64,000 nucleotides of DNA from assembly GCA_913043225.1 (NCBI GenBank), contig CAJWLU010000002.1:160001-224000 (forward strand), in the 5' to 3' direction. Position numbers and translations under genes: made by a program. Under the pieces are notes generated by a model. The model worked only from the letters and a program-made list of their open reading frames with translations, did not search any database and had not been told where the DNA came from. The DNA is from an uncultured Acidobacteriota bacterium. GTDB taxonomy: Bacteria > Acidobacteriota > Vicinamibacteria > Vicinamibacterales > UBA8438. Below are positions 47,041 through 59,844 of this stretch, piece after piece (the first letter of the stretch is position 1; the number at the start of each line of letters is the position of its first letter).

Positions 47041-48144
47041 ATGAGTACGGAGAGTGCGGTGACCGACGGTAGAGCAACAGAGGCGCGGACAGGGCTTGAT
47101 GCGTGGGTGCGCGAGATCATCGAGTGGCACTTCAATCCTGATACCGGGTGCCCGTTCTGGCTTGATTGGGCACAGCAGGCGGGTTGGGATCCGCGGAGAG
47201 AGGTCGGCGGGTTCGGCGACCTCTGCAAGTTCCCCCATTTTGAGGACGAGTGGCTGCGCGGGGGGCCCGTGCGTCGCTGGGTGCCGAAAGCCTACGCCGA
47301 CCGCCCAGCGTTCGTCTTCGAGACGGGCGGCACCACCGGAATCCCGAAGAGCCGGGTGGCCCAGGAAGACTTCCGGATCGACTACGAGCTGTTTTCAGAC
47401 ACGCTTCCGGAAAAGTGTTTCCCGCGCGGTAGCAACTGGCTGATGTTGGGGCCCAGCGGTCCTCGTCGGTTGCGGCTCGCGGTCGAGCACTTGGCACAGC
47501 ACCGTGGCGGCATCTGCTTCTGTGTCGACCTTGATCCTCGCTGGGTCATCAAGCTCATCAAGAAGGGCTGGCACGAGCACCTCAAGGCCTACCAGGACCA
47601 TGTGATCGACCAGGCTGTCACCGTGCTGTCGGCCGGACACGACATCAAGTGCATGTTCTCGACGCCGAAGCTGCTCGAAGCGCTGGCTAACCGCTTGGAG
47701 GAGAACGGGTCGAGCCTCAAGGAGACTGGCATCCAGGGCATCTTCGCCGGCGGCACGGAGTTCACGCCGCAGTGGAATCGGTTCGCCCACGAAGAGTTGC
47801 TGGACGGTATCTACATGACCCCAACCTACGGGAACACCCTGATGGGCCTGGCGGCGAGCCCGCCGAGTGGACCCGAGAACGGCTACAAGATCACCTACTA
47901 CGCCCCGCAGCCGAGAGCGGTCATCCAGGTGGTAGACCCTGACGATGCCGAGAAGGTGGTTGGGTACGGGGAGACCGGGCGGGTGATGTTAACCACGCTG
48001 ACCAAGGAGTTCTTCGTTCCTCGGTTCCAGGAGCGGGACGAGGGCGAGCGAGAGCCACCCTGCGAGCAGTACCCCTGGGATGGCGTGAGTGGGGTCAGAC
48101 CGTTCAGTCGGCTGGCCTCGGCAACTACGGTCGGTGTCTACTAG
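47041..48144 (+). CDS. Adenylate-forming protein, GriC/EhpF (PaaK/LuxE-like) type
   Basis: FETGGTTGIPK P-loop, DLDPRWV, GGT, YGNT, GRVMLTTL, ERDE. Confidence 0.75.
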   Translation: MSTESAVTDGRATEARTGLDAWVREIIEWHFNPDTGCPFWLDWAQQAGWDPRREVGGFGDLCKFPHFEDEWLRGGPVRRWVPKAYADRPAFVFETGGTTGIPKSRVAQEDFRIDYELFSDTLPEKCFPRGSNWLMLGPSGPRRLRLAVEHLAQHRGGICFCVDLDPRWVIKLIKKGWHEHLKAYQDHVIDQAVTVLSAGHDIKCMFSTPKLLEALANRLEENGSSLKETGIQGIFAGGTEFTPQWNRFAHEELLDGIYMTPTYGNTLMGLAASPPSGPENGYKITYYAPQPRAVIQVVDPDDAEKVVGYGETGRVMLTTLTKEFFVPRFQERDEGEREPPCEQYPWDGVSGVRPFSRLASATTVGVY

Positions 48145-48194
48145 GGACCTTGACGGTGAGAGCGGAGTTAAAGAGAGGACAGGCAGCGGTGAGG

Positions 48195-48683
48195 ATGAGT
48201 GACAGAACGCGCTGGTGGATGACGGCGATGGCCGTTGTGATGATAGGAGCGGTGGCGTGCGGAGGTGGCGGTGAAGAGCCGATGCCGGCCGAAGATCCGA
48301 TGGAGGATGCTCCTGGTCCCGCCGAGGATCGGTCCTCGATGACCCCGAGCGTCGGCTTCGTGTCGCCTACTGACGGCGCGAACGTTTCGAGCCCAGTCTC
48401 GATGGAGTTCATCGTCTCGAATTACAACGTCTCTCCGGTGCCGCAGGAGGTGGAGACACCACGGCAAGGTATGGGGCATCACCACGTGGGCATCGACACC
48501 GAGTGTCTCCCGGTTGGGGAGGTCGTGCCACAGGGTGACCCCTGGGTGCACTTCGGCGACGGGTCTACGACGTTCGAGACGATGCTGGAGCCAGGCGAGC
48601 ACACCCTGACCCTGCAGTTGGGTGACGACGAGCATCGCACCCAAGAAGGCTTGTGCACGACCGTCACCATAACCGTCGAGTAG
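48195..48683 (+). CDS. DUF4399-type lipoprotein
   Basis: Lipobox AVAC; FVSPTDGA, GHHHV.ID, HFGDG, LEPGEHTLTLQLGD..H. Confidence 0.8.
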   Translation: MSDRTRWWMTAMAVVMIGAVACGGGGEEPMPAEDPMEDAPGPAEDRSSMTPSVGFVSPTDGANVSSPVSMEFIVSNYNVSPVPQEVETPRQGMGHHHVGIDTECLPVGEVVPQGDPWVHFGDGSTTFETMLEPGEHTLTLQLGDDEHRTQEGLCTTVTITVE

Positions 48684-48693
48684 GAGTCGCGCC

Positions 48694-50118
48694 GTGATTC
48701 ATTTTCCAGTCCTTCGGTGGGGTGAGCCCTATCAGAGTCTTGAAACGACCGAGGTGTGCCACTTTTCGACCGGCGAGCCGGTGGCCGCGGTCAGTCAGGC
48801 CAATCCCGGGATCGTGGCTCGCGATCTCCGGAAAGGGTCTGAACGGGCGCGCGACGTGCTTAGGGAGATTCCCTGCGCGGATCTGCTCGCCATGGTCAAG
48901 AAGGGCGGCGAGCTGTTCAAGACGGCCGATCTCCCGCTGGGCGACGGCGTGCAGACTCCGGACGACTTTGTCCGTCAGCAGTCGGCGACCACCGGGCTGC
49001 CCGAGCACATGTGTCGGATGAACATGGGTAAGCTGGAGTACGTCCTGAGTCATCTGGATAAGGTGCTGACTTCGCTGACTCGAAAGCTCGACTACGACAT
49101 CCTGACCCGCGGCTATGGCGAAGAAGACGGTGTCATGCGCAGTTACCAGGCGACCACGCCAGTGTTGGGCATGGTGCTGCCGTCGAACTCCCCAGGGGTG
49201 CACAGCCTGTGGCTCCCGATCATCCCGTTGCAGATCGGATTGGTACTGAAGCCTGGTCCCCAAGAGCCGTGGACTCCTTGGCGCATGGCCCAGGCGTTCT
49301 TCCAAGCGGGTATTCCCAAGGAAGCGATCGCGCTCTATCCGGGTATGGGCGAAGTGGGTGCGGCGGTTCTCAACAATACCCATCGCAGCCTGATCTTCGG
49401 CGGCACCGCGACGGTCGAACAGTACGCCGGAAACCCGGGCGTCCAGGTCCATGGCCCGGGCTTCAGTAAGATCCTGATCGGCGACGACGTGGTCGACAAC
49501 TGGGAGCGGCATCTCGATCTCATGGTCGACAGTGTCCTCACCAACAGCGGGCGGGGTTGCATAAATTGTTCGGGCATCTGGGCGTCCCGTCACACCCGGG
49601 AGATTGCCCAAGCGGTGGCGGAGCGGATCGGGCCGATAGCGCCGTTGCCACCCGAGGACCCGGAGGCCGCGCTGGCGGCGTTCACGGTTCCGGGCCAGGC
49701 GGCTGCTATCTCAGGAGACATCGACAGCGCCTTAAAGGAGGACGGTGTCGAAGAGATTTCGGAGAAGTTCCAAGACGGTGGACGACTCGTGTCCCAGGAG
49801 CACTGCGATTACATCCGCCCAACGGTCATGCACTGCGCCTCTCCTGAGGTGGCGATGTCGAAGAAGGAGTACATGTACCCCTTCGTGACGGTGGTCGAGT
49901 GCCCGCAAGAACAGATGATCAAGGCCATCGGGACCACGCTGGTCGCGACTGGGCTGACCGAAGACCCCTCGTTTACCCGAGCGTTGCTTGATGCCCGCAA
50001 CATCGACCGGTTGAACATTGGTCCGGTGCCAACCATTAAGCTCAATTGGCTGCAGCCTCACGAGGGCAATATCGTCGACTTTCTCTTTCGCCCGCGCGCG
50101 TTCCAGCAGGCCGGGTAA
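48694..50118 (+). CDS. Aldehyde dehydrogenase-fold reductase, GriD/LuxC-like
   Basis: LPSNSPGVH, LKPG..EPWT, HGPGFSK, catalytic NSGRGCINCS, EYMYPF. Confidence 0.75.
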   Translation: MIHFPVLRWGEPYQSLETTEVCHFSTGEPVAAVSQANPGIVARDLRKGSERARDVLREIPCADLLAMVKKGGELFKTADLPLGDGVQTPDDFVRQQSATTGLPEHMCRMNMGKLEYVLSHLDKVLTSLTRKLDYDILTRGYGEEDGVMRSYQATTPVLGMVLPSNSPGVHSLWLPIIPLQIGLVLKPGPQEPWTPWRMAQAFFQAGIPKEAIALYPGMGEVGAAVLNNTHRSLIFGGTATVEQYAGNPGVQVHGPGFSKILIGDDVVDNWERHLDLMVDSVLTNSGRGCINCSGIWASRHTREIAQAVAERIGPIAPLPPEDPEAALAAFTVPGQAAAISGDIDSALKEDGVEEISEKFQDGGRLVSQEHCDYIRPTVMHCASPEVAMSKKEYMYPFVTVVECPQEQMIKAIGTTLVATGLTEDPSFTRALLDARNIDRLNIGPVPTIKLNWLQPHEGNIVDFLFRPRAFQQAG

Positions 50119-50129
50119 AGGTAACGACC

Positions 50130-50801
50130 TTGCTGGAAGTCTCCGGCCTCGCCAAGTCGTATCCGACCCCGCGGGGGGAGTTGGAGATTCTCAAGGACCT
50201 TACGTTCACGCTCGCGCCGGGTGAGGCGGCGTCCATCGTGGGACCTTCCGGCAGCGGGAAGAGTACACTGCTATACATCCTCGGGGCGCTTGAGCCGCCC
50301 ACCCGTGGAACCGTCACGCTTGACGGCGTTGACCCATTCACACTCGGGTCCACCGAGCTGGCCGTTTTCCGTAATCAGCGTGTCGGGTTTGTCTTCCAGG
50401 ATCACCTGCTTCTGCCGCAATGCTCGGTGCTCGAGAACGTCCTGGTACCGGTCCTGGTCGGCCCCGCCGACGAAGAGGCCCCCGAGCGGGCACGAACCCT
50501 GCTCGACCGGGTGGGACTGGTCGACCGGATGGACCATCGTCCGTCTGAACTATCGGGAGGGGAGCGCCAGCGCGTAGCGCTGGCCCGAGCTCTGATCCGC
50601 CAGCCACCGTTGCTGCTTTGTGACGAGCCGACCGGAAACCTCGACGGCGCGGCGGGCGATACGGTGGCCGCCATGCTGTTCGATCTGCATCAGCAGCAGG
50701 AGACCGTGCTGCTTGTCGTGACTCACAACACTGGGTTAGCAGCTCGTTGCCCGATTCGATTCGAGCTGCGCGGGCAATGTCTCGAACGCGCTGTCCAATG
50801 A
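50130..50801 (+). CDS. ABC transporter ATP-binding protein (LolD/MacB type)
   Basis: GPSGSGKST, GFVFQDH, LSGGERQRVA, DEPTGNLD; start uncertain (TTG 50130). Confidence 0.92.
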   Translation: MLEVSGLAKSYPTPRGELEILKDLTFTLAPGEAASIVGPSGSGKSTLLYILGALEPPTRGTVTLDGVDPFTLGSTELAVFRNQRVGFVFQDHLLLPQCSVLENVLVPVLVGPADEEAPERARTLLDRVGLVDRMDHRPSELSGGERQRVALARALIRQPPLLLCDEPTGNLDGAAGDTVAAMLFDLHQQQETVLLVVTHNTGLAARCPIRFELRGQCLERAVQ

Positions 50802-53800
50802 CCTTCTGGACCGTCCTTCGGAGGAGCCTGGCCCATTTTTGGCGCACCAACCTGGCCGTGGTCGCCGGGGTGGCGGTAGCCGTTTCCGTGCTGTCCGGTG
50901 CGTTTCTCGTGGGCAGCTCGGTTCGTGCGAGCCTGCGCGACTTGGCGTTGGAGCGGCTGGGGCGGGTCGACCATGTCGTCACCTCCGGGTTGTTCTTCCG
51001 CGACGAGTTGGCCGCCGAACTGGTTTCTTCGGGCGCGCTCGGGGAGGCCGCGTCGGAGGCAGTCCCGCTGATCGCCATCGAAGGACACACCACCCACCAG
51101 GAGAGCGGCAGTCGCGCCGGCGGTATCCAGGTCTACGGGGTGGATGCCAGGTTCTGGGAGTTCCACGGTCTCGAGCCGGGCGACCGAGTGCCCGAGGCTG
51201 GTGAGGTGCTGGTGTCAGAGGGCCTAGCCCGCGAGCTGGGGCTGTCGACTGACGAGACCCTACTGGTGCGGGTGCAGAAGCCCTCTTCGATCCCGGTCAG
51301 CTCACTGCACGGACGTCGCGATGATCTTGGGCAGACGATGCGCCTCCGGGTGCAGGCTGTGCTCGGACCCGATGAGCTTGGCGCCTTTTCGTTCCGACCG
51401 CAGCAGGGCGTGGCGCGCGCTGTGTTCGTACAGCTGGGACGGATGCAGCGCGAACTCGAGCTCGAGGCGCAAGCCAACACGCTGTTGCTCGGTGGGAGCT
51501 TAACGAAGGACGCCCCGGCCTCGGTCGAGGTCATCGAAACAGCGCTCCGGGCCACGACTCGGCTGGGAGATTTAGGGCTGCGGGTGCGCGAGCTCGATCC
51601 ACAGGGTGTGCTCGTCGTCGAGTCTGTCGCGGGGCTGCTGGACGACGATACGGTGGCGGCGGCCCGAGCCGCAGCGCTCGACGCCGGAATGCCTGACCAG
51701 TCGGTGCTGACCTATCTGGCTAACGAGATCCGGATGGGAGAGCGCGTGACGCCCTACTCGCTCGTCACCGGATTGGATCTCGCCCTGCTCGGGGTGTCGC
51801 CCCCGGCAGGCGGGGCTGTGCCACCGATCGTGCTCAACGACTGGACGGCCGAGGACTTGGACGCCGCCGTCGGCGACCGGATCGAGGTGGAGTACTTCCT
51901 ATGGGAGGACGCGGGCGCACTCCTCACCGAGGTGGCCGAGTTCGAAGTGGCCGCCGTCATCCCGATCGCAGGATTGGCCGCCGACCAGGACTTCGCCCCC
52001 GACTATCCAGGTATCACCGAGGCGACCGACGTTTCTGACTGGGACCCGCCCTTCCCGATCGACCTCGAACTCGTTCGTGACAAGGACGAGGATTACTGGG
52101 ACGAGTATCGTACCGTGGCCAAGGGCTTCGTGAGCTTGGAAGCAAGCCAGGCGTTGTGGGAGTCGCGGTGGGGTCGCGTTACTTCACTGCGGGTCGCGCC
52201 GCCGGCTGGTCTCGGTGCCTCGGCGACGCAGGCGTTTCGTGAGTCGTTCCGGAGCGCCCTCGACCCCCTGACTGCCGGGTTCGTCGTCTACCCGGCCAGG
52301 AGTCTGGCCCTCGAGGCGTCGGTCGGTGTCACCGACTTCGGCGAGTACTTCACCTACTTCAGCTTCTTCCTGGTGGTCTCAGCGCTGCTGTTGGCCAGCC
52401 TCTTCTTCCGGCTGGGGGTCGAACAGCGGTTGCGTGAGGTCGGAGCGCTGCAGGCGCTTGGGTTCGATCGGCGCGGTGTCCGGCGTCTGTTCTTGGGCGA
52501 AGCCGCGATCCTTTCTTTCGCCGGGAGTGTGCTCGGGATGGCCGGGGCTGTGGCCTATGCCGACGTCATCATGTGGGGCCTGCGCACGTGGTGGGTGGAT
52601 GCGGTTGGCACGACCCGGCTGATCCTGCACGTGTCGCTTTTCTCGCTGGGCGCCGGGCTGGCCGGGGGAATGCTGGCCGCCGTGGGGTCCATCGCCTGGA
52701 CACTGCGGTCGGTCGAGGCGGCGAGCCCGCGTGCCTTGATCAGCGGCTCACTGCCAGATTCGTCCAGCGCCGAGGGCGGGCCGTCCGTGCTCGTTCGGTG
52801 GGCCCCGGCGCTCCTGGCGTTACTTGGGCTGACGGCGCTCGGGGCGACATTGGCCGGCCTCATCGACGACACGGCCGGGTTCTTCAGCGCCGGTCTGTTG
52901 CTGCTGGCTGCGATGTTGACCCTATCCTGGGTGCTCCTGGCCGTGCAGGAGGGCCGCGCCGAGGCGCTTGCTCCCGGATGGTCAGTGGCACGGATCGGGG
53001 TCCGCAACACCACAGCTCGGCCCGGCCGGTCCGTGCTCTGCATCACGCTGATCGCCTTCGCCGCCTTTATCATCGTGGCCGTGGATGCGTTCCGGCGCGA
53101 CGGCTCGGCAGGCACCACCGACCCGAAGTCGGGTACCGGAGGCTACCCGTTGCTGGCCGACGCCCTGCTGCCGCTGGTGCATGACCTGTCTAGCGAGGAG
53201 GGCCGTACGGAACTTGGGATCTCAACCTTCGACGATGAGATCTTCGGGTCGGCGACTTTCGCACGTTTTCGGGTCCGACCTGGCGAAGATGCCAGTTGCT
53301 TGAACCTCTATCAGGCCAAGAACCCGAAGCTCCTGGCACCCGACCCGGCCTTCGTGGCCGAGGGGCGGTTCGGGTTCGGTGCCTCGCTGGCTGAGACTCC
53401 TGCGGAGGAAGCTAATCCTTGGCTGCTGCTGCGGCGCGAGTTCCCTGACGGCGCCATTCCCGCCATCGCCGACGCGACGTCGCTGGCCTACGCGCTTCAT
53501 CTGTCGGTTGGCGACGATTTCGTGCTGAATCGAGACAGCGACAACCCGATCACGTTGCGGATCGTCGCCGCACTGACCGACAGCATCTTCCAAGGAGAGT
53601 TGCTGATTGGCGAGACCGCGTTCCTCCGAGAGTTCCCAGAGTACGACGGTTATCGGTTCTTCTTGGTCAACAGTCCTGCGGAGCAGATCGGCGAGGTGAC
53701 CGCCGCGCTTGAGGATCGGCTTTCGGACTACGGCTTCGATATCACGTCGGCGTCCGAGCGGCTCGCCGCGTTCCACCGGGTGGAGAACACCTATCTGGCC

Positions 53801-54169
53801 ACCTTTCAGACGCTGGGAGCGCTCGGTCTGCTACTGGGGACCCTGGGGCTCGGCGCGGTGCTTCTCCGCAATGTGCTGGAGAGACGAAAGGAGCTCGCGC
53901 TGCTGCGGGCGGTAGGCTACGACCCCAGCGCGGTGTCGCGCATGGTCCTGGTGGAGAACGGCCTACTGCTGTTCGGCGGGCTGGGAACTGGGACCGTCTG
54001 TGCGGTTATCGCCATCGCGCCAGCCTTCCTCGAGCGGGGCGGCGGTTTTCCCTTTGCCTCTCTCGGTGGACTGCTGCTTGCCGTGGCGCTGGCTGGTCTG
54101 CTGTCCTCGCTCGTCGCCACCGTCGTGGCCGTGCGTTCGCCGTTGCTGGCCGCGCTTCGATCCGAGTAG
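50798..54169 (+). CDS. Large FtsX-like ABC transporter permease (duplicated)
   Basis: ATG overlaps the ATPase stop; two FtsX repeats (EQRLREVGALQALG; ERRKELALLRAVG) with large periplasmic loops. Confidence 0.88.
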   Translation: MTFWTVLRRSLAHFWRTNLAVVAGVAVAVSVLSGAFLVGSSVRASLRDLALERLGRVDHVVTSGLFFRDELAAELVSSGALGEAASEAVPLIAIEGHTTHQESGSRAGGIQVYGVDARFWEFHGLEPGDRVPEAGEVLVSEGLARELGLSTDETLLVRVQKPSSIPVSSLHGRRDDLGQTMRLRVQAVLGPDELGAFSFRPQQGVARAVFVQLGRMQRELELEAQANTLLLGGSLTKDAPASVEVIETALRATTRLGDLGLRVRELDPQGVLVVESVAGLLDDDTVAAARAAALDAGMPDQSVLTYLANEIRMGERVTPYSLVTGLDLALLGVSPPAGGAVPPIVLNDWTAEDLDAAVGDRIEVEYFLWEDAGALLTEVAEFEVAAVIPIAGLAADQDFAPDYPGITEATDVSDWDPPFPIDLELVRDKDEDYWDEYRTVAKGFVSLEASQALWESRWGRVTSLRVAPPAGLGASATQAFRESFRSALDPLTAGFVVYPARSLALEASVGVTDFGEYFTYFSFFLVVSALLLASLFFRLGVEQRLREVGALQALGFDRRGVRRLFLGEAAILSFAGSVLGMAGAVAYADVIMWGLRTWWVDAVGTTRLILHVSLFSLGAGLAGGMLAAVGSIAWTLRSVEAASPRALISGSLPDSSSAEGGPSVLVRWAPALLALLGLTALGATLAGLIDDTAGFFSAGLLLLAAMLTLSWVLLAVQEGRAEALAPGWSVARIGVRNTTARPGRSVLCITLIAFAAFIIVAVDAFRRDGSAGTTDPKSGTGGYPLLADALLPLVHDLSSEEGRTELGISTFDDEIFGSATFARFRVRPGEDASCLNLYQAKNPKLLAPDPAFVAEGRFGFGASLAETPAEEANPWLLLRREFPDGAIPAIADATSLAYALHLSVGDDFVLNRDSDNPITLRIVAALTDSIFQGELLIGETAFLREFPEYDGYRFFLVNSPAEQIGEVTAALEDRLSDYGFDITSASERLAAFHRVENTYLATFQTLGALGLLLGTLGLGAVLLRNVLERRKELALLRAVGYDPSAVSRMVLVENGLLLFGGLGTGTVCAVIAIAPAFLERGGGFPFASLGGLLLAVALAGLLSSLVATVVAVRSPLLAALRSE

Positions 54170-57466: not shown

Positions 57467-57883
57467 CTACTTCATCGGCGAGTAGTCGGTGGCGTCCATG
57501 AAGACGCTCTCGACCTGGACGCGCCCCACCCCGGATGCCTGCGCGATACCTGGCCAGTCTGGGTCCTCTCGGAACGCGCCCCAGTTCTCGCGGGCTGCGT
57601 CGCGGCTGTCGTGGGCGATGATGTAGATCAGGGTGTTAGGAGTGTCCTGCGGCACCCAGTAACCCACGTTCTCCATGTTGTGGCGCTCGAAGATCCCCAT
57701 GGTGTGGTCGCGGAACCGGGCATTTAGGTTCGGGAGCTTGCCGTCGTCTGTAGCGTAGGTCCGGAGCTCGAACACCTTATTACCCTGGGCCGAGACACCA
57801 TCGGTTGTCCAGAGATTACCGGCCATGAAGCCGAGCACGAAGACTGCGATGCCGCACGCCGTGAGTACGTTTCGATTCGTCAT
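57467..57883 (-). CDS. NIPSNAP family protein with N-terminal signal/TM segment
   Basis: FELRTY, RFRDHT, VGYW, W.AFREDPDW, TDYSP. Confidence 0.85.
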   Translation of the reverse strand: MTNRNVLTACGIAVFVLGFMAGNLWTTDGVSAQGNKVFELRTYATDDGKLPNLNARFRDHTMGIFERHNMENVGYWVPQDTPNTLIYIIAHDSRDAARENWGAFREDPDWPGIAQASGVGRVQVESVFMDATDYSPMK

Positions 57884-58317
57884 GTTGTCTTCTCCTGTTC
57901 CGACGGTTTTATTCCGCGACTGAGGAGCGCGACTGCTTGGTTGAACACCAGGCTGACGCCTCGCCCGTCAAGCAGTCGAGCCGCGACCTCAGGTGACGTC
58001 CACTGCCGTTGTCTGACCATTTGTTCGTCCCACTCGTCGTCGACCTGCTCCGCTGTAAGCAGATATACGGCGACGGTGTCGGTGCCTCCGTACTTGGTGA
58101 TGTCATAGTAGCCGACCGGGTCGCCAACCACACGGCCATGCACGCCAGCCTCCTCCTCCGCCTCGCGGCCTGCCGTCTCGTGCGGACTGTCTCACGGGTC
58201 GATGAAACCCTTTGGGATCGACCATTTCCCAGAGCTGATTGTGGTGATCAGACAGACCTCAAGGCCGCCCCTGCTGAGTCGGTAGGGGACGGCGGCGGCT
58301 TGCTGCACATCCGGCAT
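57880..58317 (-). pseudogene. NUDIX hydrolase interrupted by an in-frame TGA
   Basis: WSIPKGFIDP*DSPHETAGREAEEEAGV: the Nudix box is continuous across TGA 58194-58192, at a position where Gly is typical. Confidence 0.8.
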
Positions 58318-58730
58318 CACCGGTCGGGCAATTGTCTGGCCAGCCAGAGGGTGGCGAGCCCCAGCGGGATAACGAGCGGACCCTCGAACAGGGTCCAGGA
58401 CATCGGGAGGCCCTCGTAGGTGTCGATGCCCAGCAGCGCGACTCCGAAGAGGGCCTGCGCCCATCCCAGGTAGATGAGTACCTCTCGGTGGCGGGTGAGG
58501 TCGAAGGACACCACCCACATCAGTCCCCCCAGCATCGCGTAGAAGGCCGAGGTCGAACGGGCCAGATAGCCGACGATCGGGTCTCGAGGTAGCTCGCCGA
58601 GTCCCAGCCACGCATGGATGCTGACCATCCACGACTCGGGTGCGACGATGAAAATCAGGGCGAAGAGCTCGATGGTACCGGCCACCCGCAGTAACCACCG
58701 GAAGATGCGGTCGCGGGCGTCTTGACGCAT
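58317..58730 (-). CDS. Hypothetical 4-TM membrane protein
   Basis: Hydrophobic segments; YLARSTSAFY; stop overlaps the NUDIX start. Confidence 0.7.
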   Translation of the reverse strand: MRQDARDRIFRWLLRVAGTIELFALIFIVAPESWMVSIHAWLGLGELPRDPIVGYLARSTSAFYAMLGGLMWVVSFDLTRHREVLIYLGWAQALFGVALLGIDTYEGLPMSWTLFEGPLVIPLGLATLWLARQLPDR

Positions 58731-58763: not shown

Positions 58764-59222
58764 CTACTGCCGGCTGCGAGGCTGATGAGTGCCGAAGACC
58801 TCCAGCTCACCGTCTTCGGTGAACGAGTAGCTCGAGTACTGTCGCCCGCCGGAAATTCCTTCCATGCCCGGCGAGCCGATCGGCATACCCGGTACCGCGA
58901 TGCCCTTGACGTCAGGCCGTTCGGTCAGCAGTTTCTTGATGTCCTCTGCGGGGACGTGACCTTCGACCACGTAGCCATCGACGATCGCGGTGTGGCACGA
59001 CCCGAGCCGTGGCGGCACGCCCTCTTCGATCTTCTTGGGCGTCACGTCAGGCATGTCCGTGGTTGTCACCTTGAATCCGGCGTCTTTGAGATGATTGACC
59101 CATCCCATGCAACAGCCTCAAGTCGGGGCCTTGAAGACCTCCACTACCGGTTCCTGGCTGCGAACGGTCAGGGAGCCGATGCCGACCAGGGCGGCGAACA
59201 GCGCGATCTGAAGCTTACGCAT
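58764..59222 (-). CDS. DUF411 (CopG-type metal-binding) exported protein, probable selenoprotein (PT-U-GCC)
   Basis: ATG 59222 with GGAGG RBS, signal peptide, KAPT-TGA-GCC..WVNHL, SCHT, EGHVP, AVPGMPIGSPGME. Confidence 0.8.
59087..59107 (-). other. Candidate bacterial SECIS hairpin
   Basis: 10 nt after the UGA: UGGGAUG-GGUCAAU-CAUCUCA, a 7-bp stem with a loop starting GGUC. Confidence 0.6.
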
Positions 59223-59274
59223 GACGTGTGATCCTCCGCGTGAACCTGCGCCCCTGAGGGCGTCGGACTTCAGG

Positions 59275-59844
59275 CTACTCTGTGGCCGCGTCTTCCGCAA
59301 CCCATCGTAGCGCCGGCAGGCCATCGACGCTGGTGGCGTTGTTCTCCTGCTGATAGCGACGGAGCCCGCTTTCGCCTTTGCGAGTGGTCCAGTCGTCGAG
59401 CTGGGGTCGGTCGGTCGTGAACGTGTACTCAGGCACGCCGTAGCCGCAGGAACCGGTGATCCGGTCGACGTCCACGACAATGATAGCTCGACCGGCCGTG
59501 CCGGGATCGAAGCGGGCGCGTGCTCTGGGCCAGTGCTCGTCCTGGGGCTCCAGGACCTGACCTCGTCCGTGGAGTCTCACGATGTTGGGAGGGCCCTCGA
59601 AGGCGCAGAACATCACGACGATGCGTCCGTTCTCTCGCAGGTGCGCAATGGTCTCAGTGCCGCTCCCCACCTGGTCGAGGTAGGAGGCCTGGGTTGGACC
59701 AATCACTCGGAAGCTGTCGAGCCCCTTCGGAGATAGGTTGACGTGGCCGTCGGCTGAGAGCGGCGCCGTCGCGACAAAGAACAGGTGCTGTCGCTCGATA
59801 AACTGACGAAGCTGCGTGTCGAGTGTGTCGTAGTGCTTGCCCAT
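59275..59844 (-). CDS. Pyridoxamine 5'-phosphate oxidase family protein
   Basis: FFVATAP, NLSPKG, GSGTETIAHLRENGR, CAFEGPP, SCGYGVP. Confidence 0.9.
   Translation of the reverse strand: MGKHYDTLDTQLRQFIERQHLFFVATAPLSADGHVNLSPKGLDSFRVIGPTQASYLDQVGSGTETIAHLRENGRIVVMFCAFEGPPNIVRLHGRGQVLEPQDEHWPRARARFDPGTAGRAIIVVDVDRITGSCGYGVPEYTFTTDRPQLDDWTTRKGESGLRRYQQENNATSVDGLPALRWVAEDAATE

Follow-up and report, generated by a model that had tools for sequence, protein, structure and literature searches.

The CopG/DUF411 gene at 58764–59222 (minus strand) of the window, i.e., the whole 64,000-nt stretch of DNA that was analysed, very probably contains a TGA codon that is read as selenocysteine (Sec), at the position of the first cysteine of the family motif. 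Its product is probably a Sec-containing periplasmic copper-binding protein with a redox or buffering role.

A CopG gene with a single in-frame TGA codon

The mechanical list of open reading frames splits the gene into two (59118–59480 and 58764–59108). An earlier note on this DNA had joined them into one gene of 152 codons with a single TGA exactly at the first Cys of the motif, and translation of the minus strand with TGA as U confirmed this: it yielded 152 residues followed by TAG, with one internal TGA (59118–59120; predicted Sec35, the first position of U-G-C-C) in the context PT-U-GCC. In an alignment with 6WIS, the structure of P. aeruginosa CopG and the only solved relative, U35 falls on the first Cys of CGCC. 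The ribosome-binding site that the note had described was recovered as GGAGGA (59232–59237), 9 nt upstream of the ATG, and the downstream motifs are present as Cys76-His77 (58992–58997), Glu87-Gly-His89 (58956–58964) and Met113-x6-Met120 (58863–58886). As to the signal peptide, predicted for residues 1–22 (59157–59222), the claim that it is intact holds for the basic start and the hydrophobic core (residues 3–20, by hydropathy), whereas the cleavage site is one that we infer. The hydrophobic N-terminal core recurs in 54 of 55 TGA forms, and the predicted signal peptide would direct export to the periplasm. The gene is single-copy in the genome, and a scan for promoters and terminators found none at it.

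Predicted fold and candidate copper site

Pfam assigns the protein to DUF411 (PF04214; 99.7 bits against a cut-off of 27, E 7.5e-29), the family of P. aeruginosa CopG (PDB 6WIS/6WJE; Hausrath et al. 2020, as cited in PMC7558416, PMC8456105 and PMC8872213). The AF2 model (pLDDT 92) superimposed on 6WIS in Foldseek with a TM score of 0.89, rmsd 1.6 and E 9e-16. With CopG and R. capsulatus CutG the protein shares 45% identity, the predicted fold, the position of the CxCC motif, M-x6-M and a predicted N-terminal export signal. Unlike in these two, the first motif Cys is here a TGA, the predicted Sec, accompanied by an in-frame SECIS-like hairpin.

The CxCC and M-x6-M patterns were found as U35-G-C37-C38 (Gly36-Cys37-Cys38 at 59109–59117) and M113/M120, with the predicted Sec for the first Cys. 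C37, C38, C76, H77, E87, H89, M113 and M120 are invariant in all 55 Sec and 100 Cys forms compared, an invariance that for E87 and H89 is partly built into the motif search. The methionine pair belongs to the copper ligand set described for CopG/CutG in PMC8456105, and by sequence the candidate ligands of the tetranuclear copper cluster of CopG appear conserved. The role of the Cys homologue itself is unsettled, since Cys and Met mutants of R. capsulatus CutG leave CutO activity unaffected (PMC8456105).

A different function is conceivable for the same selenoprotein. It could be a metal-free periplasmic thiol/selenol oxidoreductase, an oxidant scavenger or a binder of another soft metal; in the oxidoreductase version, U35 and C38 would form a thioredoxin-type UxxC while C37–C76 would be structural. 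In the AF2 model U35 begins helix 1, after strand 1 of a thioredoxin-like fold, so that U35-x-x-C38 would be a UxxC in the thioredoxin position, which may speak for such an enzyme, and UxxC is the commonest motif in a recent selenoprotein inventory (PMC13188914). Moreover, 37 of 39 Sec loci are without a copper gene nearby, and the genome holds several other exported redox selenoprotein candidates. However, the His/Glu/Met ligand set, needless for a plain disulfide oxidoreductase, is invariant in the Sec forms, and thioredoxins match the model weakly (TM 0.34–0.44, against 0.89 for CopG). Membership of the Trx, Grx or Prx families was not found either: the best NCBIfam model is TrxC, whose 16 bits stay below its cut-off of 125, and Pfam gives DUF411 only. 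We regard a metal-free or other-metal function as the main rival, less likely than copper binding, which we favour.

Gene neighbourhood

Around 18 loci, 17 of them Sec forms, no member of a copper family was found among 147 neighbouring ORFs. When 22 further Sec and 32 Cys loci were scanned with two to three neighbours per side, a multicopper oxidase appeared near two of the 22, which brings the total with copper genes nearby to 2 of 39 Sec loci. The corresponding numbers were 5/32 for Cys loci and only 1/21 for the acidobacterial ones among these. All these scans used a crude ORF caller with long ORFs cut to 420 aa, and two loci (L177, L188) had no neighbours called. As the acidobacterial Cys forms also mostly lack copper neighbours, their scarcity would be a trait of the lineage. 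The copA, cus and multicopper oxidase genes with which CopG genes are often, though not by definition, linked were absent from this locus, and no conserved operon surrounded the gene across the loci scanned. This sets the gene apart from CopG and CutG: it is unlinked to copA, cus and cueO, and its relatives are seldom linked to them. A Cu-ATPase gene and a gene with a multicopper-oxidase domain lie elsewhere in the genome.

Gene context thus gives a copper function little support, and with copper genes near so few Sec loci the copper role remains one that we infer. The earlier note had proposed an exported Sec-containing metal-redox protein; its Sec part is supported by the machinery and the shared TGA described below, while the metal-redox part is carried over from the Cys homologue. 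Because the gene is single-copy and stands outside a copper operon, it is more likely to act as a standing buffer or chaperone for copper in the periplasm than as an inducible resistance gene.

Two other groups of genes were noticed. A plus-strand cluster at 47041–54169 of the window comprises ORFs resembling acyl-protein synthetase and aldehyde dehydrogenase, an ABC transporter and a small exported His-rich ORF (48150–48683), all labelled from reading the translations. Elsewhere (L230, G000 C14:17900–24000), the gene of the PDO selenoprotein candidate and the Cu-ATPase gene share a strand, the former about 2.8 kb upstream of the latter; a peptidase M61 gene and a DUF481 gene separate them, an arrangement that may be due to chance.

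Selenocysteine machinery and further selenoprotein candidates

The genome (96% complete) encodes selA (440 bits), selB (314 bits, the C-terminal part in frame) and selD (292 bits), together with a tRNA-Sec of 69.9 bits with anticodon UCA. With all four components present, a lack of Sec machinery, which would have spoken against the earlier note, is ruled out. The selD gene (G000 C10:21255–22178, L010) is a Cys form within an open frame of 788 codons and likely part of a fusion.

A genome-wide scan for in-frame TGA codons with coding signal on both sides plus a hairpin ranked the CopG gene 7th of 779. The same scan recovered FdhN alpha, PDO (TIGR02187), two UGSC proteins, three Prx-like proteins and an ArsC-like protein, of which PDO and both UGSC proteins exceed their family cut-offs; a rhodanese candidate was found by the coding scan alone. 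This recovery of catalogued selenoprotein families marks the organism as a rich Sec user. The nine further candidates, all of catalogued kinds, have their sites at G000 C23:51760, C14:23566, C28:28737, C28:37738, C10:105621, C20:2987, C50:988, C6:61097 and C1:184963. Signal-like N-termini were seen on the rhodanese and all three Prx-like candidates, so an exported Sec protein is as such nothing special in this genome.

A SECIS-like hairpin downstream of the TGA

The earlier note had described a 7-bp stem ten nt after the UGA with a loop starting GGUC, and we found this hairpin either as 7 bp with the loop GGUCAAU or as 8 bp with the loop GUCAA. In the latter form it spans 59087–59107 (arms 59107–59100 and 59094–59087, loop 59099–59095), overlaps codons Met39 to Leu45 and has a possible lower-stem extension up to 59117/59079. 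Its stability alone is within chance (z −1.4 to −1.6 against shuffles) and was dropped as stand-alone proof of Sec; for this reason we relied on comparative tests. The published model of bacterial SECIS elements specifies a loop of 3–9 nt, a stem of 4–16 bp, a G in the first two loop positions, a distance of 16–37 nt from the UGA and at most −7.5 kcal/mol (PMC13188914, Fig. 2A legend). In our own implementation the CopG hairpin falls narrowly within this model (GUCAA loop, 8 bp, spacing 18, −7.6 kcal/mol), as do 28/55 TGA loci, 5/100 Cys loci and 9% of random TGAs.

We also devised a hairpin rule of our own after inspecting the first TGA loci, and since it was written with these in view, its yield of 36/41 TGA vs 2/81 Cys loci (five repeated loci included) counts as in-sample. 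Out of sample, it was passed by 10/16 TGA vs 1/22 Cys loci from the phylum and by 7/10 vs 0/68 from metagenomes, pooled 17/26 TGA vs 1/90 Cys forms. The background was 1.2% (1199 of 97,476 genome TGAs), and 14 of 67 scored TGA loci fail the rule. Under this rule the FdhN, PDO, Prx-like, UGSC and ArsC-like genes of the genome also rank high; the loop of the PDO gene, GGUCA, lies as far from the UGA as that of the CopG gene, and the short hairpin with a G-U loop 17–21 nt past the UGA is common to the CopG, PDO and Prx-like genes.

Synonymous changes, which depend on no hairpin rule, point in the same direction. In 15 disjoint pairs of Sec forms they came to 7 of 88 in codons +4 to +11 vs 210 of 607 downstream; in 15 Cys pairs the counts were 27/78 vs 258/558. 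One stem pair covaries: of 35 sequences, 17 have G-C and 14 have A-U there, a count that carries no probability as the sequences are related. The stem occurs in three registers among 39 TGA loci (16, 6 and 13 loci; four fit none), all of which retain the G-U loop from the Trp-Val codons. Unlike the lone hairpin, the comparative signal exceeds chance. At the protein level, residue 42 is Val in 49/55 Sec vs 65/100 Cys forms and residue 45 Leu in 54/55 vs 52/100, a bias consistent with an RNA constraint on the protein sequence to which shared descent contributes. The TGA forms of family f2 (L195, L196, L197, L201) combine a longer stem with a loop of 9 nt, some 19 nt from the UGA, a further SECIS register missed by our rule; two f2 loci lie near a multicopper oxidase.

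Could the UGA be read through without Sec, for example if a suppressor tRNA or near-cognate decoding supplied Cys or Trp? The genome's set of 39 tRNAs is incomplete and tRNA-Cys is absent from it, which leaves room for an unassembled suppressor. Yet tRNA-Sec is the sole tRNA with a UCA anticodon detected by ARAGORN, the SECIS-type constraint is confined to TGA forms, and TGC is the codon in both CopG-bearing relatives (G041, G060) that lack a strong selA as well as a tRNA-Sec-grade match. Such decoding is therefore very improbable, and Sec insertion is the reading that we retain.

Conservation of the TGA codon

The TGA is not unique to this sequence. We searched 61 related genomes, of which 44 matched, and read all 44 loci: 33 have TGA at the same column and 11 TGC or TGT, with TGA in 31 of 34 within the gene's own family. 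Relatives with named records are Vicinamibacterales (Acidobacteriota). A phylum sample matched in 51 of 401 genomes and added 39 new loci in three families (17 TGA, 22 Cys). Among the best 80 of 579 confirmed loci from a genome collection, 8 of the 78 parsed have TGA, two of which repeat relatives; these TGA loci include one in an Anaerolinea MAG with selA and tRNA-Sec and one in a Desulfuromonadales MAG that has selA but no tRNA-Sec-grade match and whose gene is without the hairpin. For metagenomes, 78 of the best 80 loci (of 589) were parsed, and 10 of these have TGA. In total, the same TGA was found at 56 distinct genome loci and 10 metagenome loci. TAA or TAG never occurred at this column in any locus read, all others having TGC or TGT, and no stop was found at the other two Cys columns.

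Strong selA matches accompany 32 of the 33 TGA relatives, and the remaining one has a tRNA-Sec; as 56 of the 61 relatives have a strong selA, this co-occurrence is nearly saturated and has little power as a test of Sec. The stretch is present in seawater metagenomes. Public contigs from eight runs of seven studies (four DNA, four RNA-library) all have the TGA unchanged, so the TGC or TGT that would have exposed a sequencing error did not turn up. Nine of 11 in-gene variants in these contigs are synonymous. Contigs from all four RNA-library runs cover the gene, although contigs cannot show transcription. Pooled dN/dS was 0.14 after and 0.20 before the TGA (12 pairs, partly non-independent).

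Gene callers imply that translation ends at the UGA and that a cytoplasmic protein of 114 residues restarts at Met39. GAGG precedes this ATG, and databases store products of 108–114 aa. Such a restart is nevertheless highly unlikely: only 15 of 55 TGA forms have ATG there and 19 of 55 any start codon, neither of the Cys residues that separate the TGA from Met39 ever varies, and the part upstream, which contains strand 1 of the predicted fold, is under purifying selection. A nonsense mutation (pseudogene) or assembly error, of which the genome does have examples in a NUDIX and a DUF4440 gene with TGA at unshared Gly columns, has a negligible probability and is refuted by the sequence comparison, given a TGA at 56 genome and 10 metagenome loci that is never TAA or TAG, its persistence in the contigs of all eight runs and the low dN/dS downstream.

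These two genes illustrate what nonsense looks like here, as their TGAs are confined to a single genome and behave unlike that of CopG. The NUDIX gene (57880–58320, minus strand), two genes downstream in the window, has its TGA (58194–58192) at a column that is Gly in 5/5 relatives read, likely a nonsense change or assembly error. The DUF4440/SnoaL gene (G000 C28:7858–8283, minus strand, L146; TGA at C28:8064) has a 10-bp hairpin with a GGUAG loop; it was rejected as a second new selenoprotein, its TGA standing at a Gly column with no stop in matches from 16 other genomes.

Evolution of Sec and Cys forms

In genus g10, three Cys genomes keep selA and tRNA-Sec, and their Cys genes have no hairpin and nest inside the Sec clade in quick trees. 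Together this suggests a reversion from Sec to Cys, with a nesting that lacks AU support (p 0.229). On a careful tree (68 of 155 rows, 126 columns), the Sec label needs 9–10 changes, at least five of them forced by starred branches, and the AU test does not reject a single origin followed by reversions (p-AU 0.119). One genome (G114 C7; L213, L214) has both a TGA and a Cys paralogue of CopG.

Relation to known selenoproteins and implications

DUF411/PF04214 is absent from Table 1 of the 2026 inventory of 119 selenoprotein families (PMC13188914). In the available portions of the main texts of BSepDB, deep-Sep, Haft and Gwadz (bioRxiv) and SelCysML, no DUF411 selenoprotein appears, nor is one mentioned in the accessible deep-Sep supplements. 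NCBIfam release 20 has no matching model, and listings of the openly available literature on DUF411 or CopG with selenocysteine or selenoprotein returned nothing relevant. The full-length protein is also absent from an exact-sequence look-up, which cannot find records carrying U. As foreseen in the earlier note, annotation pipelines truncate the gene: NCBI, JGI/IMG, ENA, Logan and Tara all contain its 114-aa downstream fragment.

Thioredoxin-fold UxxC selenoproteins (Trx, Grx, Prx-like, PDO TIGR02187, DsbA-like; PMC13188914, Table 1) likewise have Sec at the N-terminal position of UxxC, but the protein differs from them in its family, an extra Cys and the conserved His/Met set of candidate metal ligands. 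With the predicted metal-handling selenoproteins of the same table it shares Sec in place of Cys in a likely soft-metal motif and a function that is predicted. These comprise the P1B-ATPase with UxxC (TIGR01525), the CopZ-family protein Csac_0668, the Cu/Zn transporter SO_0444 and MbdU (PMC13188914); their Pfam and NCBIfam families differ, and the inventory describes none of them as a soluble multi-copper-cluster protein of the periplasm. Since exported and predicted metal-binding selenoproteins are already known, we propose a new selenoprotein family, not a new category.

The mechanism that we envisage starts with SelB and Sec-tRNA, which very probably bind the in-frame hairpin, with its G-U loop from the Trp-Val codons, and insert Sec35. 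The signal peptide would then send the thioredoxin-fold protein to the periplasm. There, Sec35 would probably stand in for the first of the Cys ligands in CopG's copper cluster, while Cys37/Cys38, His and Met113/Met120 are kept. The selenolate would stay ionised and resist irreversible oxidation, as is general in Sec chemistry (pKa 5.2 against 8.5). In an oxic periplasm poor in copper, these properties would favour the capture of Cu(I) and its exchange with Cu(II). The protein would likely bind and redox-buffer copper via the Sec/Cys/His/Met site.

The fuller picture we advance only tentatively: a natural Sec-ligated multi-copper-cluster protein, widespread in Acidobacteriota and present in single Chloroflexota and Desulfuromonadales genomes, in which Sec and Cys may toggle at one copper ligand while the SECIS element shifts among several registers over the conserved Trp-Val-x-His-Leu codons. 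The bacterial selenoproteome thereby gains a family that occurs commonly in an under-studied phylum and whose members databases store as an N-terminally cut fragment without signal peptide and active motif. With a solved structure of the Cys-form copper cluster and natural Sec/Cys sister genes, it offers an unusually direct system for asking why Sec is used at metal sites. If the copper reading is true, comparison within the Sec/Cys pairs would be a direct way to test what selenium contributes to a copper site, and the family would link the handling of selenium with that of copper in bacteria of the sea and the soil.
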